Below the pieces are notes generated by a model. That model was not told where the DNA came from. It did not search any database and worked only from the letters and a program-made list of their open reading frames with translations. Source: Deltaproteobacteria bacterium (GTDB taxonomy: Bacteria; Myxococcota_A; Polyangia; Polyangiales; Polyangiaceae). From it: 64,000 nucleotides of DNA. The DNA is taken from the NCBI GenBank assembly GCA_043747815.1, contig JAYTOL010000037.1, forward strand, positions 11,695-75,694. The letters are read 5' to 3'. The translations under genes and the position numbers were made by a program. Numbering within the stretch: the stretch's first letter is position 1; each line of letters opens with the position of its first letter. This document shows, one piece after another, positions 2,911-56,404 of the stretch.

Positions 2911-2914
<4 letters not shown>

Positions 2915-3900
2915 GGCTGGATTTCGCCCTTTCGGGGCTGGGCAAAGGCTGAGACGACCTCGAAGTACGGCTTCTTGCGCTCGCGTGAACAGATACGGCA
3001 CTGCCGTACGTCAAACCCGTTGGTTTCGAGCAGCGACGTGAGCTCGCCGATCTCGAAGCCGGGGACGAGGTGCTGGTATTGGGCCGTGATGGCCTCATGG
3101 GAGTGACGGTGCAAGCACATCAGCGCGAGCGTACCGCCGGGGCGTAGCACACGAGCCATCTCGCGCGTCACGACGTCGGGCGCGTGTGAGTAGGTGAGGG
3201 CATTGAAGAAAATGATTTGATCAAAGCTCTCTCTCTCGAAGGGCAGCTCGTGCATGTCGCCTTGCCGGCAGAGGACGTGGTCGAAGCGCCCCAGCCTTTT
3301 CCGAGCCGCTTTTACCATGCGCTCACTGCGATCGAGGCACACGATGCTCTTGGCGTGCGGGGCCACGAGCTCCGCGAGCACGCCATCCCCCGAGCACAGA
3401 TCCAGCACGTCCCCCAGCAGAGAAAAACCGAGCAGCCCACGCGCGGTCGCCTCCCAGGTGCGCCCGGGAGAGTAGTGCCGTTCCATCTCGCCGGCCACAG
3501 CGTCGAGCCAGGGGCTCTTTCCCGCCCTGGCCCGCAAAAGGTCATCGAGCCGGCGGCGATCGGATTCGATCACGGCGTCCGTCAATGACGCCTGGAGCCG
3601 TGACCAAAGCTGCCGGGCGTGCTCCGGCATGCTGCTGTCGAGCGCGTAGAAGCTCGACGAGCCCGCGCGCCGGTCCCGGAGCAAACCGGCATCGCGCAAC
3701 TTAGCGAGATGAGTAGAAATTCTCGACTGAGTGAGGTTGGTGATTTGGGTCAGCTCCGCGACGGTCAGCTCCTCGGCGGCGAGCAACGCCAGGAGGCGAA
3801 CTCGTGTGCCGTCCGCCATGGCGCTCATCAGCTCCACCATGGATTCCAGAGAGAGGCATCCGTCCATCGAGATAGACGGATTACCATATTTGAGCCCCAA
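2911..3900 (-). CDS. ArsR-family HTH fused to a class I SAM-methyltransferase-like domain (SahR-like regulator of the methionine/SAM cycle)
   Basis: Winged HTH: [42 protein letters not shown]. Methyltransferase motif I: VLDLCSGDG. The stop TGA overlaps the metH ATG (ATGA at 2911-2914). The start is uncertain (in-frame ATG at 3900, 3867 or 3840). Confidence 0.8.
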
Positions 3901-4074
3901 AGTGTCAAGCTAGGCAAGGCCGTGGGCCTGGTGGCCGAGCCGCGCGTCAGGGGCAGGGCGAACCCGGCCAGATAGGCGCCTCTGCAGTCGGCACTTTCTC
4001 TACATTGGTCGAAACCCGGCGCGGACTTCAGGTTTCTCCGATTAGGGTCCGTCGCCGCGTTGGCGTCTTCCCCA

Positions 4075-7017
4075 ATGTCCCACCCCATCCATCGGCGTTT
4101 GTTGGCCGAGCAACTCCTCGGTTTGCGCCGCTCGACCGAGGGTCGTCGCTATGCGTCGGCCCAGCGCGGCGGGCGCATCGACGCCAACCCTCACCAGGTC
4201 GACGCGGTGATTTTCGCGCTCGGGAGGGTGCGTGAGGGGGGCTGCATCCTGGCTGACGAGGTGGGGCTGGGAAAAACCATCGAGGCAGGCCTGGTGATGG
4301 CCCAGCTACGTGCCGAGGGGGCGACCCGCATCCTGCTCGTGGCGCCCAAAGCCCTGCTCGGTCAGTGGCGCGAGGAGCTCTTCACGCTCTTCGGCGTAAC
4401 CGCCACCGAGCCCGGCCTGGGCGCGGACGCCTTCGAAGGGCCGGGCGTGTTTCTGATCGGTCGCGACCTGCTCGGCAGCGAGCTCGGGCTGTCGCGCCTG
4501 CTCTCGGCCGGCCCTTTCGACCTGTGCGTGGTCGATGAAGCGCACGAGGTCTTCGCAGGCATCTATCGCCGCTTCGATCGCTCCGGCAACTACATCAGCG
4601 ACTCGCCGTACGCCAAGATCGCGGGCCGCTTGCGGCTGCTCCTGGGCGGGCAGACGCCCGTGCTGTTGCTCACGGCGACGCCGCTTCAGAATTCGCTCGC
4701 GGAGCTCTGGGGCCTCGTCCAGTACGTGGACCGGAGCGGCACGTTGCTCGGAGATTTGCCGACATTTCGTCAGATGTTCTGCTCTGACGACGACCGCATG
4801 CTGTTGTCCGGTCAGGAGCTGGATCTGCAGCGCCGCATGCAGGTCGTCGTGCGCCGAACGTTGCGGCGCCAGGCCCAGGAGTTCATGAAGACGCCGTTCG
4901 TGACGCGGCGGGCCCGCCTGTTCGAGTACGACATGACCCCGGACGAACGCGCCCTCTACGACGACGTGACCCTGTATCTGCTCACGCCGGGGCTCGCAGC
5001 ATTTCGCGGCCCGCATCGGCGTCTGCTGGTGCTCGGCTTTCATCGCCGCATGGCCTCGTCACACCGGGCCCTCGCGACCAGCCTGGGGCGGGTCGCGGAG
5101 CGCTTGCGCGGCCTGCTCGCGGGCGCAGACGTCGATCCAGCGCTCGAGCTTGCCGATGACCTGGAGGAGGGCGACGAGGTCGCGCCAACGGACAGCGACG
5201 AAGGGCCCGCGCCCGAAGCCGCGAACATCTCGGCCGAGCTCGCGCTCGTGGAGAGCTTGATTGCGCGGCTCGGGGGCCTCGCCACCGACAGCAAGGCGCG
5301 GGCGCTGCTCGACGCCGTGCGCGTGTCGAGCCAGGCCGCCGCGCGGGGAGAAGGCAGCGGCAAGCTCGTGATCTTCACCGAGTCGCTGTCGACGCAGGAC
5401 TACCTGCGCGAGCTGTTGATCGGCTCGGGCCTGGCAGAGGACGGCGAGATCACGCTGTTTCGAGGGCAAAACGTCTCGCCCCGAGCGATCGAGGCCCTGC
5501 GGCATTGGGAGGAAGAAGTAGCCAAGAACCTCGGGGAGGGTGCACGCCCGAGCCGCGACGTGGCGGTGCGCCTGGCGTTGGTGCACGAGTTCAGGAGCCG
5601 CTCGCACGTGTTCATCGCGACCGAGGCCGGCGCCAAGGGGCTCAATCTACAGTTCTGCGACACGGTGATTAATTATGATCTCCCGTGGAACCCGCAGCGC
5701 ATCGAACAACGCATCGGGCGCTGCCACCGCTACGGTCAGCAGCGAGACGTCACAGTCATCAATTTTCTGGCGCGCGATAACGCCGCTCAACGCTTGACCT
5801 TCGAAATTTTGAGCCGCAAGCTCGAGCTGTTCGGCGCCGTGTTAGACGCCTCGGATCACGTACTGTACGAGCCGAGCGGGCAGAGCCCCGGCGTCGTGCT
5901 CTCGGCGCTCTCCAGCGATTTTGTGAGCGAGCTCTCGCGCATTTATCAGGGGGCTCGCAGCGTGGCTCAGATCGAAGCGGGGTTGTCCCGCCTGAGCGCC
6001 TCTCTCGATCTCCAGCGCGCCGAGGTGGAGGCCAGCCACGAGCGCACGGCAGGGCTCATCGCGTCGCGCTTCGACGCGAGCGTGCGCAAGACCTTTCGCC
6101 ATATCGCAGAGGAGCTGCCGCTGCATCTCGGTGAGTTGGATCGGGACCTCGAGCGCCTGCTCTGCGACTACCTGCAGGATCGCCGGGTCGGCTATCTTCG
6201 TAGCGCCTCGAGCGCCGGGGTGGGCATCGAGGTCGAGCCCAACCAGGTCTTGCCCGAGCCGTTCAGCGCCGGCGTGCACGTGGTGATCGGGGCCAATCGA
6301 GCCCTCTCCGCTGGCGAAGCGCTGCACCTCGGCCATCCGCTCGTGCAGCTCGCCGCTGCCGCCGCGCGGGACTCCACGCGCGAGCCGTTCCGAATACGCA
6401 TGGGCCAGGCAGACCCGAGCCCAGAGCTCTTGCCGCTGCGCGGTCGCCGCGGTCGGCTCCGCGTCATCAAGCTGCGTTACCCCGGTTTTGAGCCGGTCGA
6501 TCGCCTCGTACCCGTTGCCGTGCTGGAGCAAGGGCATCCCGGGATCGATCCTGAGACCACGCTGCGCTTGCTGCACGGGCCGCTCGAGCCCCTGCCGGAG
6601 CTCGAGACGGCGGTGACCGAGTCGGAGCTCCAGGAGGCCGTCGAGGAGGCGCTTTTCCTCGATGAGCGCGCCGTGTCGGTGCTGGAGCAGCAGCTCTTCG
6701 AACGCGCGATGAGCCAGCTGGAGCGCTTCATCGAAGATCGCGTGCTGATCCTGAAGCGAAGCCGGGAAGAGGTCACCCGTCGCATCAAGAGCGGCCGGCG
6801 AGATCGCGACACGGCAGCCGGCTCCGACGCGCGCACGCGGGTGGAGGCGCTGCTCGAGCGGTCGGAGCGCGAGCTGGAAGCACTTGACGCGGAGCTCGCC
6901 CGTCTGCAATCCCGAGATGACGATGGCTACCAGCGCTGGCGAAAGCATGCCTATGATCGGCGCTATGCACCGCCGGAGCGAGAGTCGATTCTGGACGTGG
7001 AGTTTGTGATTGGATGA
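4075..7017 (+). CDS. SNF2/RapA-like superfamily 2 helicase with a ~400-aa C-terminal extension of unknown function
   Basis: Motifs: ILADEVGLGKTIEAG (motif I), VVDEAHEV (DEAH), LLLTATPLQNS (III), ATEAGAKGLNLQ, and NYDLPWNPQRIEQRIGRCHRYGQ (V/VI). The ORF opens at TTG 4060; the first ATG is at 4075. The C-terminus has a short coiled-coil segment (ELEALDAELARLQ). Confidence 0.9.
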   Translation: MSHPIHRRLLAEQLLGLRRSTEGRRYASAQRGGRIDANPHQVDAVIFALGRVREGGCILADEVGLGKTIEAGLVMAQLRAEGATRILLVAPKALLGQWREELFTLFGVTATEPGLGADAFEGPGVFLIGRDLLGSELGLSRLLSAGPFDLCVVDEAHEVFAGIYRRFDRSGNYISDSPYAKIAGRLRLLLGGQTPVLLLTATPLQNSLAELWGLVQYVDRSGTLLGDLPTFRQMFCSDDDRMLLSGQELDLQRRMQVVVRRTLRRQAQEFMKTPFVTRRARLFEYDMTPDERALYDDVTLYLLTPGLAAFRGPHRRLLVLGFHRRMASSHRALATSLGRVAERLRGLLAGADVDPALELADDLEEGDEVAPTDSDEGPAPEAANISAELALVESLIARLGGLATDSKARALLDAVRVSSQAAARGEGSGKLVIFTESLSTQDYLRELLIGSGLAEDGEITLFRGQNVSPRAIEALRHWEEEVAKNLGEGARPSRDVAVRLALVHEFRSRSHVFIATEAGAKGLNLQFCDTVINYDLPWNPQRIEQRIGRCHRYGQQRDVTVINFLARDNAAQRLTFEILSRKLELFGAVLDASDHVLYEPSGQSPGVVLSALSSDFVSELSRIYQGARSVAQIEAGLSRLSASLDLQRAEVEASHERTAGLIASRFDASVRKTFRHIAEELPLHLGELDRDLERLLCDYLQDRRVGYLRSASSAGVGIEVEPNQVLPEPFSAGVHVVIGANRALSAGEALHLGHPLVQLAAAAARDSTREPFRIRMGQADPSPELLPLRGRRGRLRVIKLRYPGFEPVDRLVPVAVLEQGHPGIDPETTLRLLHGPLEPLPELETAVTESELQEAVEEALFLDERAVSVLEQQLFERAMSQLERFIEDRVLILKRSREEVTRRIKSGRRDRDTAAGSDARTRVEALLERSERELEALDAELARLQSRDDDGYQRWRKHAYDRRYAPPERESILDVEFVIG

Positions 7018-7042
7018 CGAGCTACTCGCAGGCGAGGGCCTT

Positions 7043-8194
7043 GTGGCGCTGAAGCTCGTGCACACCGCCGACTGGCACCTCGGAATGACATTCCCGAGCT
7101 TCGACGCGGACGCGCGTCTGCGGCTGTCGCGCGCTCGGCTGGAGGTCGTCGATCGGATCCTGGGGCTGGCGGAGCGGCACACGGTGCACGCCGTGCTGTG
7201 CGCGGGGGATTTGTTTGACGATCCGGATCCACCGCGCGAGTGGTGGGAGGGGCTCTCGCGAAAGCTTCAAGCTCGGCGCTGGGTGGGGCGACCGCTGTTT
7301 CTCCTGCCCGGCAATCACGATCCGCTGACGCAGAATGGCGTGTACGCCAAAAATCATGCGTTTCGTTCGGCCTTGCCGGACTGGGTGCACGTTGTGGATC
7401 GCGACGACTTCAGCTTCGAGCTCGCAGACGGCGCCATGCTCTTCGCGGCGCCCTGTCGCTCCCGCTCGGAGAGTCGGGACCTGGCGCTGACCCTGCTGCC
7501 GGAGCGCCAGCGCGGCGACGAGGGCGTGCGCATCGGCATGGTGCATGGCCAGACCTTCGACCTGCCGGGTTGTCAGATCAACTTCCCCATCGCGCCCGAC
7601 GCGGCGGAGCGAAAAGGGCTCGACTACTTGGCGATCGGGGACACCCACGGCTTCCGTGACGTGACGCCTGATCGGCACGCGCCGACCGTCTACCCCGGCG
7701 CGCCGGAGCCGACCCACTTCGGCGAAAGAAAGCCGGGCCACGCCGCGGTCGTGTACTTTCCCAAGGACCGGCGGCGGCGCGCTCTGGTGCGCGAGGAGTT
7801 GGTGGGGCATTTTAGCTGGGAGGTCCTCACGGTCACCAGCCTGGAGGAGCTCGAAGGCCTGGCGGCGCGCGACCTCCGGCAGCATGTCGTGCGCCTCGTG
7901 CTCGACCTGCGCGCCAGCGTCGATGAATTTGACGCCATCGAGAAAATCCTGATCCAGCTCTCCGGTACGGATGCAGCGCACGGCACTGTCGGGGTCCTGC
8001 AGGTCGACCGTGCACGGCTGCGGCTGGATACGCTCAATCTAGAGGCGACGCTCGAGCAGGCACCGGACGTGCTACGGCGGGCGGCGGCGCGCTTGCGCGA
8101 GCTCGAGCAGCAACACGGTCCAGACACTGACCAAGGCGAGATCGCGCGGCGCGCGCTCTACCAGTTGTACCGGCTGACGCGTGAGGCGAGCTGA
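7043..8194 (+). CDS. SbcD/Mre11/YhaO-like metallophosphoesterase (DNA exonuclease family)
   Basis: Calcineurin-like phosphoesterase motifs appear in order: HTADWHLG, CAGDLFDD, LPGNHD, MVHG, GDTHG. The ORF opens at TTG 7010, overlapping the SNF2 stop by 8 nt. GTG 7043 preceded by GAGGG gives the family-typical N-terminus (V)ALKLVHTADWHLG. The start choice is uncertain. Confidence 0.85.
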   Translation: MALKLVHTADWHLGMTFPSFDADARLRLSRARLEVVDRILGLAERHTVHAVLCAGDLFDDPDPPREWWEGLSRKLQARRWVGRPLFLLPGNHDPLTQNGVYAKNHAFRSALPDWVHVVDRDDFSFELADGAMLFAAPCRSRSESRDLALTLLPERQRGDEGVRIGMVHGQTFDLPGCQINFPIAPDAAERKGLDYLAIGDTHGFRDVTPDRHAPTVYPGAPEPTHFGERKPGHAAVVYFPKDRRRRALVREELVGHFSWEVLTVTSLEELEGLAARDLRQHVVRLVLDLRASVDEFDAIEKILIQLSGTDAAHGTVGVLQVDRARLRLDTLNLEATLEQAPDVLRRAAARLRELEQQHGPDTDQGEIARRALYQLYRLTREAS

Positions 8195-11100
8195 GTGAAG
8201 TTTCGTCGACTCGAGGTGCGCTCGTACCGGGCGATCGACGAAGCCTTGCTGGACTTCGGTCCGGGCCTCAACGTGCTGTACGGGCCCAACGACCTCGGCA
8301 AGACCACGCTCGCTTCGGCGATGCGGGCAGCGCTGCTCCTACCGGCGGATTCGACGGCGCATCAAGCTTTCGTGGCCTGGCATGGCGCTGAGCCGCCTCG
8401 CGTGAGCCTGAGCTTCGAAAGCGACGCCGTCGTGTATCGGGTCACCAAGACCTTTGGTCTGGGCTCGCTCGGCTCGGCGCGCCTCGAGAGCTCGCCGGAC
8501 GGGCTGTCGTTTCACGAAGACGAGCGAGGGCGAGCCGTCGATCGGCGCCTGCGCGAGCTCTTGCGCTGGGGCATCGAGGCGCCCGGGGGCAAGGGCGGCG
8601 GGAAAGGGTTGCCGGAGAGCTTTTTGAGCCATGTGCTGCTCGCGGCACAAGCGGGCGTGCCCATGATCCTGGAGCGAACACTGATCGGCGATCGGGACAC
8701 CTCCGGGCGAGAGCGCCTGCACGACGCACTCGCCGCCCTGGCGCAAGACCCGCTGTTCAAGCGCGTGCTCGAGGCGGCGCAGGCCAAGGTCGACGCGGCG
8801 TTCACGCCCACGGGGCGCCGCAAGACGGGCCAAAATTCTCCCTTCGCCCCGCTCAAGGAGCAGATCACCCAGCTCGCGCAGGAGTTCGAGCGCCTGAGCC
8901 ATCAGCGGCGCGAGAGCGAAGACGTGCAGCAGCGTATCGAGCAGCTGAGCGACGAGCGGCTGGCCCAGGAGGCTGAAGTGGCGGCGCTCGAGCAGCGTGT
9001 CACGGCCCAAGCAGCCCTGCTCGAGCGGCGCGCGGCGCATCAGCGCGCTATCGACTGCCACTCGGCGGCCAAGCACGTCGTCCTCGGCCACGCTGGCTTG
9101 CAGGCAGAGTTGACCCGGCTCAGGGCCGAGCTCGGCGCGACACGTGAGCGAGCCGAGCTCAACGCACAAAAGCTCGCAGCCGCTGCCGCGCTCCTCAGTG
9201 AGGCGGAAGCCCGCGCCGCCGCTGGTGATCGAGCGCTCGCGGACCTGAGCAGTGAGCTCCCGCTCGAACGGCAGGCGCTCGAGCGAGCGGCTCTGCAGGC
9301 TGAGCACCAGGAGCGGCGCGAGGCGTTGCTGGCCGCGGAAGAGCTCACACTTTTGGAGTCCGCCGCACTGGCGGCAGAAGCGGCGTGGCAGGCGGAGCAC
9401 CGCGAGCTCGAGGTCGCCGAAGCCGCTGAGGGGGCGCTCCGACAGAAGCTGCAGGAGGTGGAGGCAGCGCTCGCCGAAGCGCGTCAGCTCGAGCTCGCTT
9501 GCCAGTGGCGCGAAGCCAACGCATGCGCCGACAGGGCTCGCGCCGCGCGCGGCGATGCACTCGAGCTCGAGGCGAAAGCGAGCGCGCTCAGGGCTCGCGC
9601 CACGGCCGATGACGCCGCCGGGCGCCGCCTCGCCGAGACGTCTCCCGCGACGCTCAACGAGCTGCGCAGCCTGGACGGGCAGATTCGGGTCGCGGCGGGT
9701 CGCCTCGAGGTCGGGCTCGCTGTCGCTCTGACGCTGCCCGTCGGCTGTGACGTGGCGCTCTCCATCGACGGAGTGGCCGAGCCGCGACGGGTGGGCACCG
9801 GGCAGCGGATCTGGAGCCGCGGTCGCAGTCGGGTGCAGGCGCGGGTGTCTGGGGGCATCGAGCTCGAAGCCGTGGCTGGAGATCCTGAGCTGCGAGAGAA
9901 GCTGGCCCTGCTCGAGCGGCGCTGGGCCGAAGAGGCGGTCCCCTTGCTGCAGGCGGCCGGGGCGGACACGCTCGACGCTTTGGCCGAACGGCTCGAGGCA
10001 GAGCGGGCGCGTTTGCGCGACGCTGCGGCGGCGCTGCGCGAGTCCGTATCGCTCGAGGCTCGCGCCGCGGAGAAGCGAGAGCGTGGGCTCGAGCTCGAGG
10101 TGTGGGAGCAACGCGCCGAGCAGCGGCGGCAGGCGCTCGGCCGCCTGGAGCTTTCGGAGCTGCGCGGGCCGCTGGACGAGCTGGGGGCGGCTTGGGAGGT
10201 CGAGCTCCAGAAGCGCATCGGGGCTGCCAATGCCGAACGAGCCCGCGCGAGCGCCGCGCTCGAAGCTCGAGCAGCGGCGTTGGTACGAGTCACGACACGG
10301 CTCGGTGCGCTCGCTGAGAGCCGAGACGCCGCGAGCACACGACGTGACGCCGCCTTGGCACGGCACGGCCTCTCGGACGTCGAGCGGCCGTCGCTTCTGC
10401 AGCTGAAGCAGCGCGTGACGAGCGCCGAACAGGCCAAAGCGGCTGCCGCGGGCAAGCTCGAGGCCTGGGAGCGCCGGCTCGCTCTGCAAAGCGCCGACGC
10501 GCGCCGCGCGCGGGAGCAGGCGGCGTTGGCCCTCAGCGAAGCCCGCCGCGCTCACGACGCCGCTCAGGCGGCGAGCTTGGCGGCGCGAGAAGGAGAGCTC
10601 ACGCTGGCCGCCCGTGTGCGCGAACGCGAGCATCACTTGGGTGGGGTCGACATGCTAGCGGGTCGCCTGGAGCTCGAGCGCGCAGAGGCCGAGCTCCGTG
10701 GGTTCGGCGAGCTCGATGAGCTGACGCTCGAAGACCTGGCGCGAAGCGAAGGCGAGCTCGAGCGAGCGCGGGCCGAGCTCCAGCGCTCGGTCGGTGAATT
10801 GCGGCGTGCAGAGGGTGCGCTCGGGCACGTCGGCGGAGACGTGGTGGTCGAGCGAGAGCGGCAGACGCGGGAAGCGCTGGAGCGTGCCCGCGCGCTCGAG
10901 CTCGACCAGGAGCGCGAATACGAAGCTTTTCGCCTGCTCGCAGAGACGCTGCGCGGGGTCGAGAACGAAGCAGGCGCACACCTCGGCCGAGCGCTGGAGG
11001 CGCCCGTCAGCGAGCGCTTCGAGCGCTTGACCGAAGGGCGCTATCGCAACGTGGGTCTCGACTCGGGCCTCGGGCTTCAGGGCGTGTTCGTGGCGGGGCA

Positions 11101-11452
11101 GGCGCGTGCCTATCGCGATCTGTCCGAGGGCACGCAGGAGCAGCTGGCCACCATCTTGCGCCTGTGCATTGCCGAGCACCTGCAGACCGCGATCGTGCTC
11201 GACGATCACTTGGCGCAGACGCACCGCCGGCGCGCGGAGTGGTTTCGCCAGACGCTGCGCGAGGCGGCTCTGCGCATTCAGATCATCGTGCTCACCGCCC
11301 GACCCGAAGACTATCTCTCGCCCGCTGAGCTCGGTGACGGCACAGCGCCGCGCGAGGCGTCAGGCGCCCTCGTGCGAGCCATCGATCTCGAAGGGGTGAT
11401 CAAGCGCGCCGTCTACACTGCCGCGGCTTCACGCGAGGCCGCCGAGGGCTGA
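8195..11452 (+). CDS. SbcC/Rad50/YhaN-like SMC-type ATPase (long coiled coil, no CxxC zinc hook)
   Basis: GTG 8195 directly follows the upstream TGA (8192-8194). Head motifs: Walker A YGPNDLGKTT, signature LSEGTQEQL, Walker B IVLDDHL. Between the heads lie several hundred residues of A/E/R/L-rich heptad-like sequence. Confidence 0.85.
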   Translation: MKFRRLEVRSYRAIDEALLDFGPGLNVLYGPNDLGKTTLASAMRAALLLPADSTAHQAFVAWHGAEPPRVSLSFESDAVVYRVTKTFGLGSLGSARLESSPDGLSFHEDERGRAVDRRLRELLRWGIEAPGGKGGGKGLPESFLSHVLLAAQAGVPMILERTLIGDRDTSGRERLHDALAALAQDPLFKRVLEAAQAKVDAAFTPTGRRKTGQNSPFAPLKEQITQLAQEFERLSHQRRESEDVQQRIEQLSDERLAQEAEVAALEQRVTAQAALLERRAAHQRAIDCHSAAKHVVLGHAGLQAELTRLRAELGATRERAELNAQKLAAAAALLSEAEARAAAGDRALADLSSELPLERQALERAALQAEHQERREALLAAEELTLLESAALAAEAAWQAEHRELEVAEAAEGALRQKLQEVEAALAEARQLELACQWREANACADRARAARGDALELEAKASALRARATADDAAGRRLAETSPATLNELRSLDGQIRVAAGRLEVGLAVALTLPVGCDVALSIDGVAEPRRVGTGQRIWSRGRSRVQARVSGGIELEAVAGDPELREKLALLERRWAEEAVPLLQAAGADTLDALAERLEAERARLRDAAAALRESVSLEARAAEKRERGLELEVWEQRAEQRRQALGRLELSELRGPLDELGAAWEVELQKRIGAANAERARASAALEARAAALVRVTTRLGALAESRDAASTRRDAALARHGLSDVERPSLLQLKQRVTSAEQAKAAAAGKLEAWERRLALQSADARRAREQAALALSEARRAHDAAQAASLAAREGELTLAARVREREHHLGGVDMLAGRLELERAEAELRGFGELDELTLEDLARSEGELERARAELQRSVGELRRAEGALGHVGGDVVVERERQTREALERARALELDQEREYEAFRLLAETLRGVENEAGAHLGRALEAPVSERFERLTEGRYRNVGLDSGLGLQGVFVAGQARAYRDLSEGTQEQLATILRLCIAEHLQTAIVLDDHLAQTHRRRAEWFRQTLREAALRIQIIVLTARPEDYLSPAELGDGTAPREASGALVRAIDLEGVIKRAVYTAAASREAAEG

Positions 11453-11482
11453 GAGCGCCCCTTTCTGCGTTGCCTTCGCGCT

Positions 11483-11794
11483 TCAGCGCCCGGTGGGCTC
11501 TCGGGTCGCGCCGTCTGCCTTCTTTTTGGCGAGCGTGAGCTGCAGCTGGAAGAGCGCGAGCTGCTTTCGTTCTCGATCGGCGAACCCAGCTCGGTCGGCC
11601 GCGTGCTCCTTACGCCAGACCAGGATCAAGAGCGCGAGCGACCCCACGAACGCGAGCGCGGCGACCATCCCCACGGCGTTGGCCCCCGCTTCGGGGCCTG
11701 GGCCACGCGTCTTGGCCATCACCAGCGCGATCGCCGAGAGCGAGACCGCCGCGCCAAGCGCACGGCGGAATCGGCGCAGCGTCGGCAGATCCAT
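11483..11794 (-). CDS. Small two-TM membrane protein, function unknown
   Basis: Two hydrophobic segments (AVSLSAIALVMA; VGMVAALAFVGSLALLILVW). The ATG at 11794-11792 overlaps the glgP stop (TGATG), suggesting translational coupling. No recognisable domain. Confidence 0.5.
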   Translation of the reverse strand: MDLPTLRRFRRALGAAVSLSAIALVMAKTRGPGPEAGANAVGMVAALAFVGSLALLILVWRKEHAADRAGFADRERKQLALFQLQLTLAKKKADGATREPTGR

Positions 11795-14319
11795 CAAGGT
11801 TCCGCGAATTTGCTCATATCGACGGGCACGGGGCGGATCTTCCAGATCTCCTCGGCGTACTGGCTGACGGTCTCGTCGCTCGAGAAGCGGGCCGATCCGG
11901 CGATGTTGAGCAGCGCCTTGCGGGACCAGGTGCGGCGATCCGTGTACAGGCGAGCGGCCTCGGCTTCCGTCGCGACATAGGCGTCGAAGTCCGCGCAGAC
12001 CATGAACGCATCTACGTTCTTTAGATTGTCGACCACGGAGGCGTACCGGTGGGGGTCGTTCGGGCTAAAGAAGCCTTTCTCCAACATGCCAACGACCTCG
12101 CGTAGCCGTGGGCTCCGGTCGATGTAGGTGTTGGGGTTGTAGCCGCGATTGCGCACCTCCTTGACCTCGGGGGCGGTCAGGCCAAAGAGGAAGAAGTTCT
12201 CCTCCCCGACCTCTTCACGGATCTCCACGTTGGCCCCGTCGAGAGTGCCGATCGTGAGCGCCCCGTTCATCGTCAACTTCATGTTGCCCGTGCCGGAGGC
12301 CTCTTTGCCCGCAAGCGAGATCTGTACGGACAGGTCGGCGCCGGGGATCAACACCTCGGCGAGCGACACGCCATAGTTCGGGACGAAAGCGACGCGGATC
12401 CGCCTCGAGATAGCCGGGTCACCGTTGATGATGTCGGCCACGTCGTTGATCAAGTGGATGTGCTGCTTGGCGATCTGGTAGCCCGGGGCGGCCTTCCCGG
12501 AGAAAATGTAGGTGCGCGGGACGATCGCCATGTTGGGGTCGCGCTTGATGTCGATATATAGGGAGATGACCTGCAAAATCGCCAAGAGCTGGCGCTTGTA
12601 TTCGTGGATGCGCTTGACCTGTACGACGAACATGCTGTCCGGATCGAGGTCTACGTTGATGCGTTCCTTGACCAGGCGCGCGACCGCGAGCTTGTTCTGC
12701 CGCTTGACGCTCCAGAGCTTCTCGAGCAGGGCTTCGTCTCCGACGTGGTCCCGTAGCCGCTTGATTTGGTTGAAGTCGCGCAGCGTCCAGTCCGAGCCGA
12801 TGCGCGTGGTGATCAGGTCGCTCAGTGGCTTGTTGGCGTGCAAGAGCCAGCGCCGCGGCGTCACGCCGTTCGTCTTGTTGTTGAAGCGCTCGGGCCACAG
12901 CTCGTAGAAGTCCTTGAGCAGGTCCTCCTTGATCAGCTCCGTGTGCAGCTTGGCCACGCCATTCACGCTGAACGAGCCGACGGTGGCGAGGTTCGCCATG
13001 CGGATCTGCTTGTCCGGGCCCTCTTCGATCAAGCTCATGCGCTGCAGCCGCTCGGTGTCGTTAGGCCAACGCACGTGCACCGTCTTGAGGAAGCGCCGGT
13101 TGATCTCGTAGATGATCTGCAGGTGCCGGGGCAGCAGCTTCTCAAACATGCGCACGGGCCACTTCTCGAGCGCCTCGGGCAAGAGGGTGTGGTTGGTATA
13201 TCCGAAGGTCCGTTGGCACAGGTCCCACGCACGATCCCATTCGAGGTTCTCCAGATCGACGAGCACGCGCATCAGCTCTGCCACCGCGATGCTCGGGTGC
13301 GTGTCGTTGAGCTGGACGGCGATGCGATCCGGCAGGTCGTCAAACGTGCTGTGCCGCGTCTTGTAGCGGCGCACGACGTCCGCGATCGAGCAAGCCACGA
13401 AGAAGTACTGCTGCTGCAGCCGCAGCCGCTTGCCTGCGTCTGTCGAGTCGTTGGGGTAGAGCACCTTGGAGATGCTCTCACTGTCGATCTTCTGTTCTAC
13501 CGCACGCCGGAAGTCACCCTCATTGAACAACGCCAGGTTGAAATCGCGCGTGGCGCGCGCGGACCAGAGCCGCAGCGTCCCTACCGTGTCCGTCTGGTGG
13601 CCGACGATGTAGATGTCGTAAGGCAGGCCGATCACCTGCTCCGTGTCGACCCAATGCACCTTCAGGCGCCCGCCAGCTTCGGTGTGCGTCTCGACCCGCC
13701 CGCCGAAGTTGACGATCTGAGACAGCTCGTAGCGCGGCATTTCGCGCGCGCTGCCGTCCTGGAGCCAGTCGTCACGCTGCTCGACTTGCTGACCGTCTTT
13801 CATGAGCTGCTTGAAGATGCCGTAGTCGTAGCGAATGCCGTAGCCCATCGCGGGCAGCTCCATCGTGGCGAGGGAGTCCATGAAACAAGCCGCCAGCCGC
13901 CCGAGGCCGCCATTGCCGAGCCCGGGGTCGCTCTCACACTCCAGCACCGTCTCCAGATCACAGCCGTGCTCGCGCAAGATCTCCGCGATCTGATCCTCGA
14001 GGCCCAAGTTGACCAGGCACAAGCCCAGGCTGCGCCCGATCAAGAACTCCGAAGACAGGTAACACACGAGCTTGACGTCGCCGTTGGCGAGGTACGTGTT
14101 CCGCGTCGCGAGCCAGCGGTGGATCAGGCGGTCTCGCACCGCGTGTGAGAGCGCACGATAGAAATCAAAGGGGGTCGCGTCGCTGATGTCTTTGGTGCAG
14201 GTGTAGAGCAAGTGATCGATGAGCGCACGCCGCAGCGCAGGGGTCGACATGCCCGTTCGAACTCCGGGCGTGGTCAGGTGGCTACTGCTGTTCTCTTGGG
14301 CGTCCAACTCTCGAATCAT
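11794..14319 (-). CDS. glgP: Glycogen/alpha-glucan phosphorylase
   Basis: 841 aa. PLP-lysine motif EASGTGNMKLTMNGALTIGTLDGANVEI. Typical N-terminus ALSHAVRDRLIHRW. A GAGGAG Shine-Dalgarno lies 7 nt upstream of ATG 14319. Confidence 0.95.
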   Translation of the reverse strand: MIRELDAQENSSSHLTTPGVRTGMSTPALRRALIDHLLYTCTKDISDATPFDFYRALSHAVRDRLIHRWLATRNTYLANGDVKLVCYLSSEFLIGRSLGLCLVNLGLEDQIAEILREHGCDLETVLECESDPGLGNGGLGRLAACFMDSLATMELPAMGYGIRYDYGIFKQLMKDGQQVEQRDDWLQDGSAREMPRYELSQIVNFGGRVETHTEAGGRLKVHWVDTEQVIGLPYDIYIVGHQTDTVGTLRLWSARATRDFNLALFNEGDFRRAVEQKIDSESISKVLYPNDSTDAGKRLRLQQQYFFVACSIADVVRRYKTRHSTFDDLPDRIAVQLNDTHPSIAVAELMRVLVDLENLEWDRAWDLCQRTFGYTNHTLLPEALEKWPVRMFEKLLPRHLQIIYEINRRFLKTVHVRWPNDTERLQRMSLIEEGPDKQIRMANLATVGSFSVNGVAKLHTELIKEDLLKDFYELWPERFNNKTNGVTPRRWLLHANKPLSDLITTRIGSDWTLRDFNQIKRLRDHVGDEALLEKLWSVKRQNKLAVARLVKERINVDLDPDSMFVVQVKRIHEYKRQLLAILQVISLYIDIKRDPNMAIVPRTYIFSGKAAPGYQIAKQHIHLINDVADIINGDPAISRRIRVAFVPNYGVSLAEVLIPGADLSVQISLAGKEASGTGNMKLTMNGALTIGTLDGANVEIREEVGEENFFLFGLTAPEVKEVRNRGYNPNTYIDRSPRLREVVGMLEKGFFSPNDPHRYASVVDNLKNVDAFMVCADFDAYVATEAEAARLYTDRRTWSRKALLNIAGSARFSSDETVSQYAEEIWKIRPVPVDMSKFAEP

Positions 14320-14485
14320 TCTGTGGCTCCTCGGTTCTCGACTGCACGCGGTCCAAACACGACGTAAGTGTTTTTACGGTGTATTTCGAGCGTACGATAG
14401 CCGCTGAGCTGCATCAGCCATCCGTCCGGTACGGACCGCGTCCCTCGCCCTTGAACTCCGCTCCGGCTCAATCGACAATCGCCTC

Positions 14486-14965
14486 ATGAAGTACGATCTA
14501 AAGCTCCGAACCCTGGGCGGCGACCCGCGTTCGCTCGAAGACTATCAGGGCCAGGCCCTCCTCATCGTCAACGTGGCGTCCAAGTGCGGGCTCACCCCTC
14601 AGTACGCGGGGCTCCAGGCTCTGCACGAGCAATACGGTGAGCGAGGTCTCACGGTGCTCGGCTTCCCGTGCAACCAGTTTGGCGCGCAAGAGCCGGGCAG
14701 CGCCGAGCAAATCACCGAGTTTTGTACCGCCAACTATGGCGTCACGTTTCCCATGTTCGAAAAGCTCTCCGTCAATGGCCCTGACCGTCACCCTCTCTAC
14801 ACGGAGCTGACAAAGGTCGCCGACGCGAGCGGTAAAGCCGGAGACGTGGAGTGGAACTTCGAGAAGTTTTTTGTGGGTGCGGATGGCGCAGTGCGGCGCT
14901 TTCGGCCCAAGACCAAGCCGGACGACCCGAGCCTCGTCGAGGCCATCGAAGACGCCTTGCCTTGA
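14486..14965 (+). CDS. Glutathione peroxidase (Cys-type)
   Basis: Motifs VNVASKCGLTPQY, FPCNQFGAQEPG and WNFEKF. The active-site residue is encoded by TGC (Cys), not TGA (Sec). Confidence 0.9.
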   Translation: MKYDLKLRTLGGDPRSLEDYQGQALLIVNVASKCGLTPQYAGLQALHEQYGERGLTVLGFPCNQFGAQEPGSAEQITEFCTANYGVTFPMFEKLSVNGPDRHPLYTELTKVADASGKAGDVEWNFEKFFVGADGAVRRFRPKTKPDDPSLVEAIEDALP

Positions 14966-15052
14966 GCGCTTCGACTGGGTAGCCCCGTCGGCCCCCAAGC
15001 CTTGACAGGGGTAGGGAAACGCGCGACTGACGCGGCTCAGACTGGAGTCGTA

Positions 15053-16945
15053 ATGAGTTTTCCCATCGATCTCGGCGCGTATGTGCCACTTTCTCTCGAT
15101 CTGGCGGCGGAGTCGCTGACCCCCGCCGCTGCCCGGCAGCTCGGCGCCAACGTTCAGCTCGCGCGCGACGCGATCGTGTTCTTTACGGCGTTGGCACACG
15201 CTCGCGGCTTGGGGGGCCACACTGGAGGTGCTTACGACATCACGCCAGAGTTGCTGCTGGCGGATGCCTTCATGCGCGGCAACCCTCGCATCTTGCCCCA
15301 CTACTACGACGAGGCGGGGCACCGTGTCGCCATTCAATATTTGATGAGCGTGCTCAACGGGCACCTGCGCGCGGAGTCGCTCTTGCACTACCGCGAAGCG
15401 GAGTGGAAGCTTCCGGGGCATCCCGAGCGGGGCTTCACGCCGGGCATCACTTTTTCCTCCGGGCGGCTCGGCCACCTGTGGCCGTACGTGAACGGCATCG
15501 CCGCGCGCGAGCCGGACAAGGCGCTGGTGCTGTTTGGCTCGGACGGCTCACAGCAGGAGGGCAATAGCGCAGAGGCCGCGCGCTTCGCAGTGGCTCGCGG
15601 TCTCGAGGTCAAGCTCATCATCGATGACAACGACGTGACGATTTCGGGTCATCCCAGCCAGTATCTGAAGGGCTACGATCTTCAGAAGACCTTGGCCGGG
15701 CACGGGCTCCGGGTGGAGAGCGTGAACGCCGAGGACGTGCATGCCCTGCACGGCGCGATGCGGCGCTTGCTCACGAGCAAAGGGCCCGCAGCCCTGCTCT
15801 GCAAACGGCCTATGGCGCCCGGCATCGCAGGGATCGAAGGCAGCCCCAAGGGGCACGACGCCATCCCGGTTGCCGCGGGCATCGAGTACTTGCGCGCCCG
15901 AGGCCACGAGGCCGCGGCACGTGTGCTCGAAGACGCGAAGCCCGCGCCCAAGCTTCCTCAGCTGCGCGGCAGCTCCGGCGCCCGCACGGCCGTGCGCACC
16001 GTCTTCGGCGAGGCGCTCTCCGAGGTACTCGAGGGGCTCGACAAAGCGACGCGCGCTCGCACCTGGGTCGTCGACAGCGACCTGGCGGGCTCGTGCGGCC
16101 TATCCGTCATCGCCAAGGCCTGGCCAGAGGTCTACGTCGCGGGCGGCATCATGGAGCGCAGCAATTTTTCCGCGGCCGCCGGCTTTGGCTCGGAGCCGGG
16201 CTACCAGGGGGTGTTCGGCACGTTCTCGGCGTTCCTGGAGATGATCGTGTCCGAAGTCTCGATGGCGCGCTTGAACGAGAGCAACGTGCTGGCTCACTTC
16301 TCGCACGCCGGCGTGGCCGACATCCTGGACAACACCTGCCATTTCGGCATCAATAATTTCTTCGCCGACAACGGCCTCGGTCCGGGCGATAGCACGCGCC
16401 TCTACTTCCCGGCAGACCAACACCAGATGCGCGCGGTGGTTCACCGCGTGTTCTCCGACGCGGGCTTGCGTTTCATCTTCTCGCCGCGCGCCGCGCTGCC
16501 CGACATTCAGGACGACGCTGGCAAGCCGCTCTACGGCGAGGGCTATCGCTTCGAACCTGGGGTCGATCACGTCGTACGCGAGGGCAAGGCAGGGTGGGTC
16601 GTCAGCTACGGCGACGTATTGCATCTCGCGCTGGATGCGGTGCTGGGGCTCAGAGCGGCGGGCCTCGACGTGGGTCTGATCAACAAGAGTACCCTCAACC
16701 AGGTGGATGAGGCGACGCTCGCGCGCGTGGGCCAGAGCGAGTTCGTGCTGGTCGCGGAGAGCCAGAGTCGGAGCACGGGCCTCGGTTCGCGCTTCGGCAC
16801 CTGGCTGCTCGAGCGAGGGCTACGGCCGCGCTACGCGCGGGTGGGGACGCACGTGCGAGGGAACGGCGGCGCGTTCGAGCAGATCGTCCAACAGGGACTG
16901 GACGCGCCGAGCATCAGCCAGGCTATCAAGAGGCTTTGCGGCTGA
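15053..16945 (+). CDS. Transketolase-family thiamine-diphosphate enzyme
   Basis: Motifs GGHTGGAYDI, GSDGSQQEGNSAEAARFA and LIIDDNDVTISG (TPP-binding region), followed by Pyr and C-terminal domains. ATG 15053 is preceded by GGAG; the ORF opens at TTG 15002. Confidence 0.75.
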   Translation: MSFPIDLGAYVPLSLDLAAESLTPAAARQLGANVQLARDAIVFFTALAHARGLGGHTGGAYDITPELLLADAFMRGNPRILPHYYDEAGHRVAIQYLMSVLNGHLRAESLLHYREAEWKLPGHPERGFTPGITFSSGRLGHLWPYVNGIAAREPDKALVLFGSDGSQQEGNSAEAARFAVARGLEVKLIIDDNDVTISGHPSQYLKGYDLQKTLAGHGLRVESVNAEDVHALHGAMRRLLTSKGPAALLCKRPMAPGIAGIEGSPKGHDAIPVAAGIEYLRARGHEAAARVLEDAKPAPKLPQLRGSSGARTAVRTVFGEALSEVLEGLDKATRARTWVVDSDLAGSCGLSVIAKAWPEVYVAGGIMERSNFSAAAGFGSEPGYQGVFGTFSAFLEMIVSEVSMARLNESNVLAHFSHAGVADILDNTCHFGINNFFADNGLGPGDSTRLYFPADQHQMRAVVHRVFSDAGLRFIFSPRAALPDIQDDAGKPLYGEGYRFEPGVDHVVREGKAGWVVSYGDVLHLALDAVLGLRAAGLDVGLINKSTLNQVDEATLARVGQSEFVLVAESQSRSTGLGSRFGTWLLERGLRPRYARVGTHVRGNGGAFEQIVQQGLDAPSISQAIKRLCG

Positions 16946-18533
16946 CGTCCCCCTGCGACCAGTGTCCGTCGATGCGTCGCCACATCTTCCCGGTCGGGTT
17001 GTGATCGGCGAGCTCGGGCGGGAGGCGCTGCGGGCGGACTTGGTCGTAGCAGTGCAGAGCAGTGAAACGCACGATGCTCGCGGGGAGGCCCACGCTCGTG
17101 AAGCCGGGGTGCCCCGTCGCAGGAAAAGGGCCACCGTGATTCATCGCGGGTGACACCGCGACGCCGGTGGGCATCTTGTCGTTGAGCAAACGCCCGACGC
17201 GCTGGCGCAAGCGCGGCTCGAGCGCGCGGGCGACCGGCTCGTCTTCCCCCTGACTGTCGCTGTAGATGGCAGCGGTCAAGCTCCCCTGGAGCGCGTTCGC
17301 GATCGCGCAGAGCTCGTCCGTCCCTTGGGCGAACACCAGCAAATGCGCGGGGCCAAATGCCTCGGCCTGCAGCGCGTTTGGATGCTTTAGAAAGTCGCTA
17401 CCCGACACGAGCGCCAGCGTATTTTCGAACGCGAACCCCGGGCCTTTGGCCTTCCCACCCGTCAACAGCTGAGCTCCATGCGACAGCCAGCCCGCGAGGC
17501 TCTCGCTGACGTGCCCCGCGCTCTCAGGCCCGAACAGCGCCCCGCGGGGTGCAGCCTCCAAGAGCCCCTTCAGCTCGGCCGCGAAAGCATCGGCGAGGCC
17601 GCCCTCACACAGCACGCTGATGCCGGGCTTGGTGCAGAACTGCCCTGCGCCGAGCGTACAAGACGCGGCGAGCTCCTTCGCGATGCTGGCGCCGCGCTCG
17701 CGCAGGGCCGCCGGCAAGATGAACAGCGGATTGATCGCTGACAGCTCGAGATAGATAGGTTTGCCCGCCTGATCGGCGGCGGCCTTCAGCGCCAGCCCGG
17801 CGCGCCGGCTGCCGGTGAAGGCGCTGGCGCCGAGCTTGGGGTGCGCGACCAGCTCGAGCCCGAGCTCCGGCGGCAGGCCGTAGAGCAATTGAACGCTCGC
17901 CGCCGGCAAGCCGCTGTGGCTCAGCGCCTCTGACGCTGCTTCTGCCAAGAGGCGCGTGGTGTCGAGGTGGCCGGGGTGCGCCTTGGCGATCACGGGGTTA
18001 CCGGCGGCGATCGCGGCAGCGAAGTCGCCGCCCAGCATGGCATTGAAGGCAAAAGGAAAGTTGTTTGGCCCAAACACCGCTACCGGGCCCCCGAGCGGGC
18101 CGCGCATGGATCGGATCTCATTTTTCGTGTCGATGCAGGCGTCGCAAAACGAGCGCTCGCGCGCTGCTACGGCGGCTTGGCGCAGCTGCCCGGCCGTGCG
18201 CGGGAGCTCGACGTTCTTCAGCCGGGGCTCCATCGGCAGCCCCGTCTCGAGATGTGCGCTGGCCACCAGGGCGTCTGCCCGAGCCTCGAGGTTGTCCGCG
18301 CAGCGCTCCAGAAAAGCCCCGATCCGCGCCGGGTCCGTCGCGCGCAGCTCGCCTGCCGCTGCGCTGCCGGCGGCCAGAGCCGCCTTCAGCGTCGCCTCTC
18401 CCGAAATCGGGAAGCGCGCTTCGAGCCGCTCCCCGGTGCGCGGATTGTACGACCAGAGTTGCCCTTCTGGTGAGGCCTCCGCTTGCCAGCGCCCGGAGAT
18501 CCAGATCGATTGTAGCGACATCGAGCCTTCCAT
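16926..18533 (-). CDS. NAD(P)-dependent aldehyde dehydrogenase, alpha-ketoglutarate-semialdehyde dehydrogenase-like
   Basis: ALDH motifs FTGSRRAG and ELSAINP, plus the catalytic-Cys region GAGQFCTKPG typical of the KGSADH subgroup. The 3' end overlaps the convergent transketolase-family gene by 20 nt. Confidence 0.8.
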   Translation of the reverse strand: MEGSMSLQSIWISGRWQAEASPEGQLWSYNPRTGERLEARFPISGEATLKAALAAGSAAAGELRATDPARIGAFLERCADNLEARADALVASAHLETGLPMEPRLKNVELPRTAGQLRQAAVAARERSFCDACIDTKNEIRSMRGPLGGPVAVFGPNNFPFAFNAMLGGDFAAAIAAGNPVIAKAHPGHLDTTRLLAEAASEALSHSGLPAASVQLLYGLPPELGLELVAHPKLGASAFTGSRRAGLALKAAADQAGKPIYLELSAINPLFILPAALRERGASIAKELAASCTLGAGQFCTKPGISVLCEGGLADAFAAELKGLLEAAPRGALFGPESAGHVSESLAGWLSHGAQLLTGGKAKGPGFAFENTLALVSGSDFLKHPNALQAEAFGPAHLLVFAQGTDELCAIANALQGSLTAAIYSDSQGEDEPVARALEPRLRQRVGRLLNDKMPTGVAVSPAMNHGGPFPATGHPGFTSVGLPASIVRFTALHCYDQVRPQRLPPELADHNPTGKMWRRIDGHWSQGDVSRKAS

Positions 18534-55637: not shown

Positions 55638-56404
55638 GGCATCCCAGCAGGGGCCACACCAAGACGGCGTTCGGCGTCCAGAAAGAAGGCGTTGCGGACA
55701 AGGACGGGCTCGTGCTCCGACAAGCCGCTGACGACCGTCACCTTTTGATACTGGATCTTGCCGATGCGGAGCGGCCGCTGTTCGAAGCGGTCTGACTCGC
55801 CCGCGCGCACGAGCACGTACGGACCATGGCCGAGCGAGAGCAGCGCTTGCTCGGGCACTACGAGCGAGCTGCGGGTGCGGCGGGCGGTGAGCAGCACGCG
55901 TCCGACGCTCTGCGGCGCGAGCCCGTCGGGCACGGCACCTTCAAAACGAAAGCCGACACGCGAGGTCGACTCGTCCCACGGCAAGGGCGGCTCGGGCGCG
56001 CGCGACAGCGCCCGTGGCGGGTCGGTGCGGGCACCAAAATAGGCGAACGGGAGGTCAGCGTTTGATAGGCTCGGGAGCTCGTCGTTATATAGGATCGCTT
56101 GAACCCGTCCCGCAGCATCCAACCAGGCGGGTGCCTCGATAGCTTGGGAGAACACCTGCCGCAGCGCGGGCTTCACGTCGCCACGAGCCGGGGCGCTGTC
56201 TGTCGGGTCGGCGGCGGCCGCCTCGGCTCCCAGCGGCGCAGCCCGCCGCCAGGGCTCCAGCGCCATGCCGCACACAGGGCAGTCCCCCGAGCGCTCCGAC
56301 CTCACCTCCGGGTGCATGGGGCACACGTAGAGACTCCCGCTCGAAGAGCCGGATCTCGAAAAGGCAAAGCCAACCGCCAGCAGGCAGAAGAACACCAGAA
56401 CCAT
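55634..56404 (-). CDS. Short RND periplasmic adaptor with an N-terminal heavy-metal-binding CxxC-type domain
   Basis: TM/signal MVLVFFCLLAVGFAFS. Metal-binding domain YVCPMHPEVRSERSGDCPVCGMAL. The rest is about 190 aa resembling only the beta-barrel/membrane-proximal part of MFPs (LVVPEQALL...YVLV...RPLRIG...VTVVSGLSEHEPVLV). The ORF opens at 56671; ATG 56404 was chosen because it precedes the hydrophobic segment. Confidence 0.6.
   Translation of the reverse strand: MVLVFFCLLAVGFAFSRSGSSSGSLYVCPMHPEVRSERSGDCPVCGMALEPWRRAAPLGAEAAAADPTDSAPARGDVKPALRQVFSQAIEAPAWLDAAGRVQAILYNDELPSLSNADLPFAYFGARTDPPRALSRAPEPPLPWDESTSRVGFRFEGAVPDGLAPQSVGRVLLTARRTRSSLVVPEQALLSLGHGPYVLVRAGESDRFEQRPLRIGKIQYQKVTVVSGLSEHEPVLVRNAFFLDAERRLGVAPAGMP

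Follow-up and report, generated by a model that had tools for sequence, protein, structure and literature searches.

We analyzed a 64,000-nucleotide stretch of contig JAYTOL010000037.1 from a Deltaproteobacteria bacterium of the family Polyangiaceae (assembly GCA_043747815.1, positions 11,695–75,694; hereafter, the window) and, within it, a cassette of three genes on the forward strand (4075–11452) that encode, in this order, a Snf2-type helicase, an Mre11/SbcD-type nuclease and a coiled-coil ATPase of the SMC superfamily. The trio is a real, dedicated unit that recurs with the same gene order in four bacterial phyla and moves horizontally as a block. The components are all of familiar kinds; what is new is that a DrmD/RapA-like Snf2 motor is obligately combined with a nuclease-ATPase pair that resembles SbcEF of Bacillus subtilis. 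With moderate confidence, we infer that the cassette is a methylation-independent defense module that would degrade foreign DNA, that is, DNA of phages or plasmids. This interpretation is favored by the mobility of the block, its patchy distribution across phyla, its residence in defense islands, and the association of the sister clade of the helicases with restriction-modification (R-M).

Relatives of the trio were collected by scanning one genome per GTDB species and by recovering additional contigs via exact-protein look-ups. The closest helicases, 46–62% identical to that of the window, come from Terriglobales, Bryobacteraceae and other Acidobacteriota, Myxococcales, metagenome-assembled genomes (MAGs) of Proteobacteria, Thermoanaerobaculia, and Spirochaetia. 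Wherever the helicase is at least 50% identical to that of the window and enough downstream DNA is available, the helicase gene is succeeded by those for the nuclease (48–78% identity) and the ATPase, ordered as in the window (19 of the 19 loci). These loci span Myxococcota, Acidobacteriota, Pseudomonadota and Spirochaetota, and in those with gene calls, stop and start codons overlap by 1–8 nucleotides (nt) at several junctions. A dedicated three-part unit had been proposed in a first-pass annotation of the window that was made from the sequence without database searches, and the synteny of the helicase with the nuclease-ATPase pair in all 19 loci bears out that proposal. There is no fourth conserved gene across the 19 trio loci. 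The small open reading frames (ORFs) upstream of the trio in three of the relatives (L082, L086 and L087) were discarded as candidates, not being common to one another. A hydrophobic ORF of 104 amino acids (aa) located between the trio and glgP on the reverse strand (11483–11797), which is 49–61% identical in all close relatives, was rejected as well: it is present also in L171, a locus that lacks the trio, and so belongs to the glgP backbone. In one proteobacterial MAG (L003:10946-13679), the helicase and nuclease genes are 2.7 kb apart, with a fatty-acid desaturase gene and a 279-aa ORF located between them on the opposite strand. In a long-read Terriglobia MAG (L011:7992-15334), the helicase and the ATPase are each broken into several ORFs, owing either to pseudogenization or to assembly indels.

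Beyond this clade, we delineated a second tier of approximately 150 loci, comprising genomes (29–37% helicase identity) and viral contigs from IMG/VR (22–41%); neither the nuclease nor the ATPase partner is present in any of these. In the 69 genomic loci of this tier, the commonest conserved neighbors are Type III methyltransferases (two forms, in 35 and 19 loci) and Type III restriction enzymes, which reach PADLOC scores of 710–804 bits, and not the drmA, drmB and drmC genes of DISARM. The helicases of these loci (L012–L080; for example, L013:6050-12646 and L048:8001-17183) score about 700 bits against the PADLOC DrmD model PDLC02619.

The three ORFs of the window are packed on one strand, as the first-pass annotation stated (4075–7017, 7010/7043–8194 and 8195–11452), and their GC content at third codon positions is 0.81–0.83 in the coding frame. 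The helicase gene begins at 4060 or 4075, the latter an ATG that yields a 980-aa protein, and ends with TGA at 7015–7017; the nuclease gene spans 7010–8194 (394 aa, TTG start) or 7043–8194 (383 aa, GTG start); the ATPase gene occupies 8195–11452 (1085 aa, GTG start). Reading of the second junction confirmed that GTG 8195 directly follows the nuclease TGA (8192–8194), with a GAGG motif 8 nt upstream of the GTG. For the first junction, the suggestion that the nuclease ORF opens before the helicase stop holds in part: TTG 7010 indeed lies 8 nt ahead of the end of that stop, but the nuclease start is probably GTG 7043, 25 nt past the helicase stop and not overlapping, because most orthologous nucleases are about 383 aa long, their alignments start at residues 10–14, and a Shine-Dalgarno-like GAGGG is located 5 nt ahead of GTG 7043. 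Even with this start, the trio genes are tightly packed. The intergenic leader (3901–4074, forward strand) that separates ATG 4075 from a divergent gene (2911–3900) is the presumed operon promoter; a sigma-70 consensus was not found in this leader.

The helicase of the window is a complete Snf2 ATPase. It contains the SNF2-rel_dom and Helicase_C Pfam domains and the motifs DEVGLGKT (aa 61–68), DEAH (154–157), TATP (200–203) and QRIGRCHRYGQ (545–555), and motifs I, II, III and VI are invariant in an alignment of 36 homologues. The top family among the PADLOC and NCBIfam models is DrmD, with 392–394 bits, followed at lower scores by RapA, DpdE, BrxH, ZorD and HmaA. The DrmD scores are below the cut-offs (394 bits vs 950 for NF038318; 206 vs 610 for NF038317), as is that of the RapA model NF003426 (117.6 bits vs 576). 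When the AlphaFold2 (AF2) model of the whole chain, with an overall predicted local distance difference test (pLDDT) score of 80, is compared with known folds, full-length RapA of E. coli ranks first (E 1e-24), at a template modeling (TM) score of 0.4–0.5. The best RapA fold match is N-terminally truncated RapA, so the helicase appears to lack the N-terminal region of RapA. The protein is predicted to be a translocase of double-stranded DNA (dsDNA) of the Snf2 family, of the RapA/DrmD-like variety.

The ATPase core of the helicase (approximately aa 1–590) is accompanied by a conserved C-terminal module (aa 630–980; 5962–7014, forward strand), to which no function is assigned and which is modeled at pLDDT 85–95 as a long helix (630–702), an alpha/beta domain (707–840), a helical hairpin (849–945), and a terminal strand. 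The first-pass annotation had singled out this extension of about 400 aa for a Pfam search. It belongs to no Pfam family, it has no PDB sequence match in profile searches, and its Foldseek results are dominated by the Snf2 core. It is not specific to the trio: in tblastn, the alignments with Type III R-M-linked relatives reach residues ~935–974 and thus include the module, which the DrmD-like helicases of this kind have as well.

The nuclease contains a Metallophos Pfam domain (9e-12) with the motifs HTADWH, GDLFD, GNHD, MVHG and GDTHG. The five phosphoesterase motifs do not vary among 14 orthologues, with motif V in the form GDTH instead of GHxH. Over the first ~100 residues, the protein is nearest to SbcD/Mre11, and its best sequence matches in the PDB are the N-terminal regions of SbcD/Mre11 from T. 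maritima and E. coli. Its scores are below every curated cut-off (60.6 bits vs 77.65 for TIGR00619 (sbcd); 45 vs 450 for NF008206), and no model of PADLOC-DB v2 is matched.

The Pfam matches of the ATPase (AAA_23, AAA_15 and SMC_N) are confined to the N-terminus. The recognizable motifs include GPNDLGKTT (Walker A), Q152, LSEGTQEQ (signature) and IVLDD (Walker B), and in 35 ATPase homologues, the Walker A motif, Q152, the signature residues S977/G979/Q983, D1003-D1004 and R1036 are invariant. The Walker B motif has the form hhLDD, without the catalytic Glu of ABC ATPases, and the position of the H-loop is taken by T-A/C-R-P, where the His is replaced by the invariant Arg (R1036). The statement of the first-pass annotation that the catalytic motifs of the three proteins are present accordingly has to be amended: all were located and are invariant or nearly so, except that the Walker B motif is LDD and lacks the catalytic Glu.

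In the AF2 model of the ATPase (pLDDT 82), a split ABC head is connected to an apex by an antiparallel coiled coil of about 300 aa. The Foldseek matches of the protein include Smc5/6, condensin, MukB, Rad50 and JetC, with the head-only matches being to Rad50. The apex or 'central' domain (9707–9964, forward strand) consists of six beta strands (aa 508–560 in the model) and two helices (564–588) that replace the zinc hook or the SMC hinge, and its hydrophobic pattern is kept in the orthologues; no CxxC zinc hook exists anywhere in the ATPase sequence. Against the Rad50 models, the ATPase scores 16–30 bits vs cut-offs of 700–1087, and its PADLOC matches cover the P-loop only (residues 1–47, up to 88 for two LmuB models). 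The original label of an SbcC/Rad50-like ATPase describes the general SMC/Rad50 plan correctly but does not fit the lack of a zinc hook, the unique apex and the DD form of Walker B.

The absence of CxxC, the beta-rich apex, the LDD form of Walker B and the Arg in place of the H-loop His make the window ATPase resemble SbcE (YhaN) of B. subtilis more than SbcC/Rad50. SbcE is an SbcC-like protein that lacks CxxC, has a unique central domain and is encoded downstream of sbcF, and it interacts with SbcF (YhaO), an SbcD-like nuclease, in the yeast two-hybrid system (PMC2811018). The trio, when set against this published description of SbcEF, has in common with it the nuclease gene immediately before the ATPase gene, the long coiled coils, the lack of CxxC and the unique central domain. 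In contrast, SbcEF consists of two genes without a Snf2 helicase and performs a core repair and competence function in Firmicutes, whereas the trio includes such a helicase and is a mobile cassette. Weak Pfam matches to AAA_27 (YhaN) were obtained for some orthologues and none, at E < 0.01, for the window ATPase; one orthologue carries the name 'YhaN' assigned by the Joint Genome Institute. More distantly related pairs of a nuclease and a coiled-coil ATPase are encoded without a helicase in a metagenome (L251:8775-13375) and on plasmid pRL12 of Rhizobium johnstonii (L252:7010-10758). Because both ATPases have the LDD Walker B and S/T-C-R at the H-loop position, as in the trio, the nuclease-ATPase pair of the trio can be assigned, on motif grounds, to a putative branch of an SbcEF-like two-gene family. 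The metagenomic pair is located near a WYL regulator; the pRL12 pair adjoins a ParDE toxin-antitoxin pair and is annotated as 'DNA repair exonuclease' and 'AAA family ATPase'. A candidate nuclease-ATPase fusion (P0366, 1338 aa), in which a truncated nuclease (aa 1–270) is joined to an ATPase start (MRLVKL...GPNDTGKSS, ~aa 346), probably results from a frameshift in the gene call and was not counted as support.

The likeness to SbcCD/Mre11-Rad50 extends to the five-motif nuclease, which is most like SbcD/Mre11; to the ATPase head, which is most like Rad50; to the adjacency of the genes; and, in the AF2 model, to the plan of split head, long antiparallel coiled coil and apex. The differences are that the trio ATPase lacks the zinc hook and has DD, not DE, in Walker B and Arg for the H-loop His, that motif V of the nuclease is GDxH, not GHxH, that the proteins fall below all family cut-offs for SbcD, SbcC, Mre11 and Rad50, and that the trio has an obligatory third, Snf2 subunit. 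The archaeal herA-mre11-rad50-nurA and the Bacillus addAB-sbcDC operons likewise combine an Mre11/Rad50-type pair with a motor or helicase. These are core repair genes, and their motors are the HerA hexameric translocase or the AddAB helicase-nuclease, whereas that of the trio is a Snf2 protein.

The trio is named neither in PADLOC-DB v2 (2023) nor in NCBIfam release 20 (2026), none of its proteins reaches an NCBIfam equivalog cut-off, and literature searches yielded no description of a Snf2-nuclease-ATPase trio, in agreement with the failure of the first-pass annotation to recognize it as a named system. All assignments to named defense systems were rejected: the helicase is below the thresholds for DrmD, BrxH, DpdE, ZorD and HmaA, the ATPase matches by its P-loop only, and the nuclease matches nothing in PADLOC. 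DrmD-type helicases (of DISARM class 1 or associated with Type III R-M) resemble that of the trio, with DrmD as the best family and 29–37% identity over nearly the full length including the C-terminal module. The trio helicase, however, attains 394 bits vs a cut-off of 950, and the Type III-linked relatives approximately 700 bits on the PADLOC model. Membership in DISARM was dismissed, given that no DrmA, DrmB (DUF1998), DrmC (PLD) or DrmMI adjoins the trio and that the DrmD score is below the cut-off, and so was membership in Type III R-M, as no Mod or Res genes were noticed among the annotated genes around the trio. E. coli RapA, which matches the helicase over its whole length better than any other solved structure, differs in the score below cut-off, the N-terminal region that is apparently absent from the trio protein, and the genomic partners. 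Lamassu (LmuB), Wadjet (JetC) and Gabija (GajA) are similar to the trio in that they team a nuclease effector with an ATPase of the coiled-coil or ABC kind, are methylation-free and reside in defense islands. However, the models of LmuB and GajA are matched only by the P-loop region of the trio ATPase (about 45 residues), and the nuclease of the trio is a metallophosphoesterase, whereas those of Lamassu, Wadjet and Gabija are of the Toprim, Cap4 or PD-(D/E)xK types. Neither PADLOC matches to LmuA, LmuC, JetA, JetB or JetD among the trio proteins nor anything like these among the Pfam-scanned flanking genes were detected.

Several observations show that the cassette is transferred as a block. 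Helicases from different phyla are 52–55% identical. Between the loci L008 and L250, the DNA identity of 74% sets in about 90 nt ahead of the helicase start and gives out about 25 nt short of the ATPase stop, the flanks being unrelated. The colinearity of the window with a 77%-identical relative (L086) starts exactly at position 4075, with none upstream. Downstream, the window lineage has a common backbone that consists of the 104-aa ORF, glgP and the genes for glutathione peroxidase and transketolase. In four metagenomic contigs with a glgP gene 80–86% identical to that of the window (L170, L172, L173 and L175), the trio is present at the glgP site. In L171 (glgP 85% identical), which has the same tkt-GSHPx-glgP-orf104 backbone, the trio is absent from this site, and its place (corresponding to window position 11453–11483) is taken by a different cargo (L171:6000-10900), namely, genes for a DUF4329 protein, an uncharacterized 305-aa ORF and a HerA-like ATPase. 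Because L171 carries other genes where its relatives carry the trio, the cargo of the site downstream of glgP is variable within this lineage. The initial observation of no integrase, tRNA or composition break at the flanks was reproduced: no integrase was found by a Pfam scan of ten flanking ORFs and no tRNA gene within positions 1–25000, and the GC content, 0.67–0.71 vs 0.62–0.65 in the flanks, includes no sharp break (0.62–0.71 in the window overall). The best protein matches of the window are to Polyangiaceae/Myxococcota. Insertion scars were sought as well, and no direct or inverted repeat of at least 8 nt common to both cassette borders was found.

In other genomes, the neighborhoods of the cassette often include defense and mobility genes. 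In L008, a bona fide Gabija system is located directly downstream of the trio (15855–18486; GajA 470 bits and GajB 368 bits in PADLOC), and in L250, a Gabija-like pair of an OLD-TOPRIM ATPase and a UvrD helicase, identified with Pfam, is immediately downstream (13384–17452), along with a Shango-like set of TerB, a BrxC/D-like ATPase and a DEAD helicase, and with an integrase. The neighbors in other loci include an Eco57I-type Type IIG R-M gene, DUF2357/PDDEXK, PemK, HNH and a DUF4011 helicase (L081); a BrxC/D-like ATPase, an Lhr-like helicase, a dynamin-like protein, a PLD protein and Mrr (L088); an integrase, GmrSD, a transposase and HsdR (L089); a PDC-S37/Hhe-like helicase, the TrwC relaxase and the TrwB coupling protein (L001); toxin-antitoxin pairs, with Ku and LigD 1.6–3.6 kb downstream (L084); DUF3800 (L082 and L083); and an integrase fragment upstream of the trio (L004). 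A giant superfamily 1 (SF1) helicase whose C-terminus carries an MTES_1575/DUF559 nuclease-like domain adjoins the trio in two unrelated genomes (L001:2359-6969 and L081:18674-22961); the L081 protein also has the DUF4011 domain, and the L001 copy matches PDC-S37 and Hhe in PADLOC. The window, L086, L087, L006 and L007 have housekeeping flanks. Altogether, in roughly half of the ~15 independent contexts, defense or mobility genes are present within 8–10 kb.

In the assembly that we propose, a dimer of the nuclease would sit on the ATP-gated ABC heads, with the long coiled coils joined at a proteinaceous apex, as in Mre11-Rad50, SbcCD and SbcEF. The Snf2 protein would be a dedicated dsDNA translocase that either clears proteins off the target DNA or reels the DNA toward the nuclease. 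The most likely role of the module would be to restrict invading phage or plasmid DNA. Because the cassette includes no methyltransferase or other self-marking gene, self would be discriminated from foreign DNA through DNA ends, hairpins or other structures of the incoming or replicating foreign DNA. RecBCD, SbcCD and Wadjet all discriminate by DNA ends or structures. The divergent gene next to the trio in the window (2911–3900, reverse strand) encodes an ArsR-type helix-turn-helix domain fused to an S-adenosylmethionine-dependent methyltransferase, the latter with Pfam families of the small-molecule type. Because this gene is not conserved beside the trio elsewhere, it is no modification partner of the trio.

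Several points weigh against a role in defense. The mechanism of self/non-self discrimination is not evident from the trio genes, and because the Walker B Glu and the H-loop His are missing, ATP hydrolysis by the ATPase may be slow, or the protein may serve mainly as an ATP-dependent clamp. The tally of neighborhoods was made by hand over ~15 contexts and does not amount to a statistical defense score. The window and its closest relatives are flanked by housekeeping genes, including those for glycogen phosphorylase, glutathione peroxidase and transketolase, and among the six contigs of the window lineage with enough downstream DNA, the trio is kept at one site in five (L086, L170, L172, L173 and L175; not L171). 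The genes for Ku and LigD are found nearby in L084, and recF-dnaN-dnaA in L087. Furthermore, the trio was not found in the PLSDB plasmids, the cultured phages of INPHARED or the top IMG/VR matches. Finally, SbcEF acts in double-strand break (DSB) repair and competence, not in defense (PMC2811018).

The main alternative is that the cassette is a DNA-repair operon, in which an SbcEF/SbcCD-like complex acting on ends or hairpins and equipped with its own Snf2 motor would resect host DSBs or process blocked ends, in an arrangement comparable to those of the addAB-sbcDC and herA-mre11-rad50-nurA operons. This is a possibility to be taken seriously, even if we deem it unlikely. Apart from the repair function of SbcE and SbcF, proteins with the same architecture (no CxxC, a central domain, and the nuclease gene upstream), it is consistent with the housekeeping flanks in the window, L086, L087 and L170–L175, with Ku and LigD so close downstream in L084, and with the ordinary chromosomal or megaplasmid contexts of the helicase-free pairs annotated as 'DNA repair exonuclease'. 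However, a core repair operon does not sit well with the patchy distribution across phyla combined with high identity between them, the mobile block with sharp boundaries, the presence or absence at one site among close relatives, the recurrence in defense islands and in integrative or conjugative elements, and the ties of the sister group of the helicase clade to R-M. The first-pass annotation held repair to be at least as likely as defense, which rested on the housekeeping flanks in the window; the other genomes and the relatives of the helicase tilt the balance to defense.

A more specific version of the defense interpretation is that the trio represents a new class of methylation-independent immunity in which a Snf2 remodeler is an obligate subunit of an Mre11-Rad50-like complex and would strip end-protecting or DNA-coating proteins, so that the nuclease can resect the invader DNA. 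Such a system would correspond in prokaryotes, and might even be evolutionarily related, to the cooperation of Snf2 remodelers (Fun30/SMARCAD1 and INO80) with MRN in eukaryotic end resection. We regard this version, including the eukaryotic connection, as speculative and doubtful.

Improbable, in our assessment, is a function for the mobile elements themselves rather than in host immunity, whereby the trio would serve to process the DNA of the element as it is transferred or integrated, or else to attack rival elements or the restriction imposed by the host. The location inside integrase-bearing elements (L089 and L250), next to TrwC and TrwB in L001, and downstream of an integrase fragment in L004 would fit such a function, but for the window, L086, L087, L007 and L006, there are no mobility genes within 8–10 kb, the plasmid and virus databases yielded no copy (PLSDB, INPHARED and the best IMG/VR matches), and elements of this kind commonly carry defense genes as cargo too. 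Still less credence can be given to a role in transcription or replication conflicts, where a RapA-like Snf2 protein would target RNA polymerase that has stalled, leaving the DNA structures that arise to be processed by the nuclease complex. This scenario is suggested by E. coli RapA being the best match of the helicase, over its full length, both in structure and in PDB sequence; however, the RapA score of 117.6 bits is far from the NCBIfam cut-off of 576, the N-terminal region of RapA is apparently absent, the fold similarity is modest (TM 0.4–0.5), and the relatives of the helicase are linked to R-M, not to RNA polymerase. A chance adjacency or loose association without a functional unit, for which the separated helicase and nuclease genes of L003 could be invoked, is effectively refuted by the synteny in 19 of 19 loci in four phyla, the junction overlaps of 1–8 nt and the confinement of DNA conservation to the block.

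Elsewhere in the window, two large ORFs on the forward strand (41315–45999; 1138 and 423 aa) are apparently translationally coupled and have no Pfam match; they are followed by genes for a GH5-like protein and a second, unrelated metallophosphoesterase (47918–48943). A pair at 52434–56671 (1067 and 345 aa) that was considered as a canonical SbcCD paralogue turned out to encode an RND efflux pump and a protein with a heavy-metal-binding domain.

The trio clade occurs exclusively in bacteria that are uncultivated or little studied, such as Myxococcota and Acidobacteriota, hence its absence from the current defense catalogues. If the cassette is a defense system, it would add a family in which an entire Mre11-Rad50-type repair machine is redeployed along with a motor of the chromatin-remodeler type, and given the lack of a methyltransferase, how the nuclease spares the chromosome becomes the question. 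It would also provide a tractable bacterial model of the cooperation between a Snf2 translocase and an Mre11-Rad50-like complex, which, to our knowledge, is known in eukaryotes only from genetics and complex biochemistry. If, instead, the trio functions in repair, the SbcEF branch of SMC-like proteins, itself poorly understood, would have helicase-assisted variants that spread horizontally.

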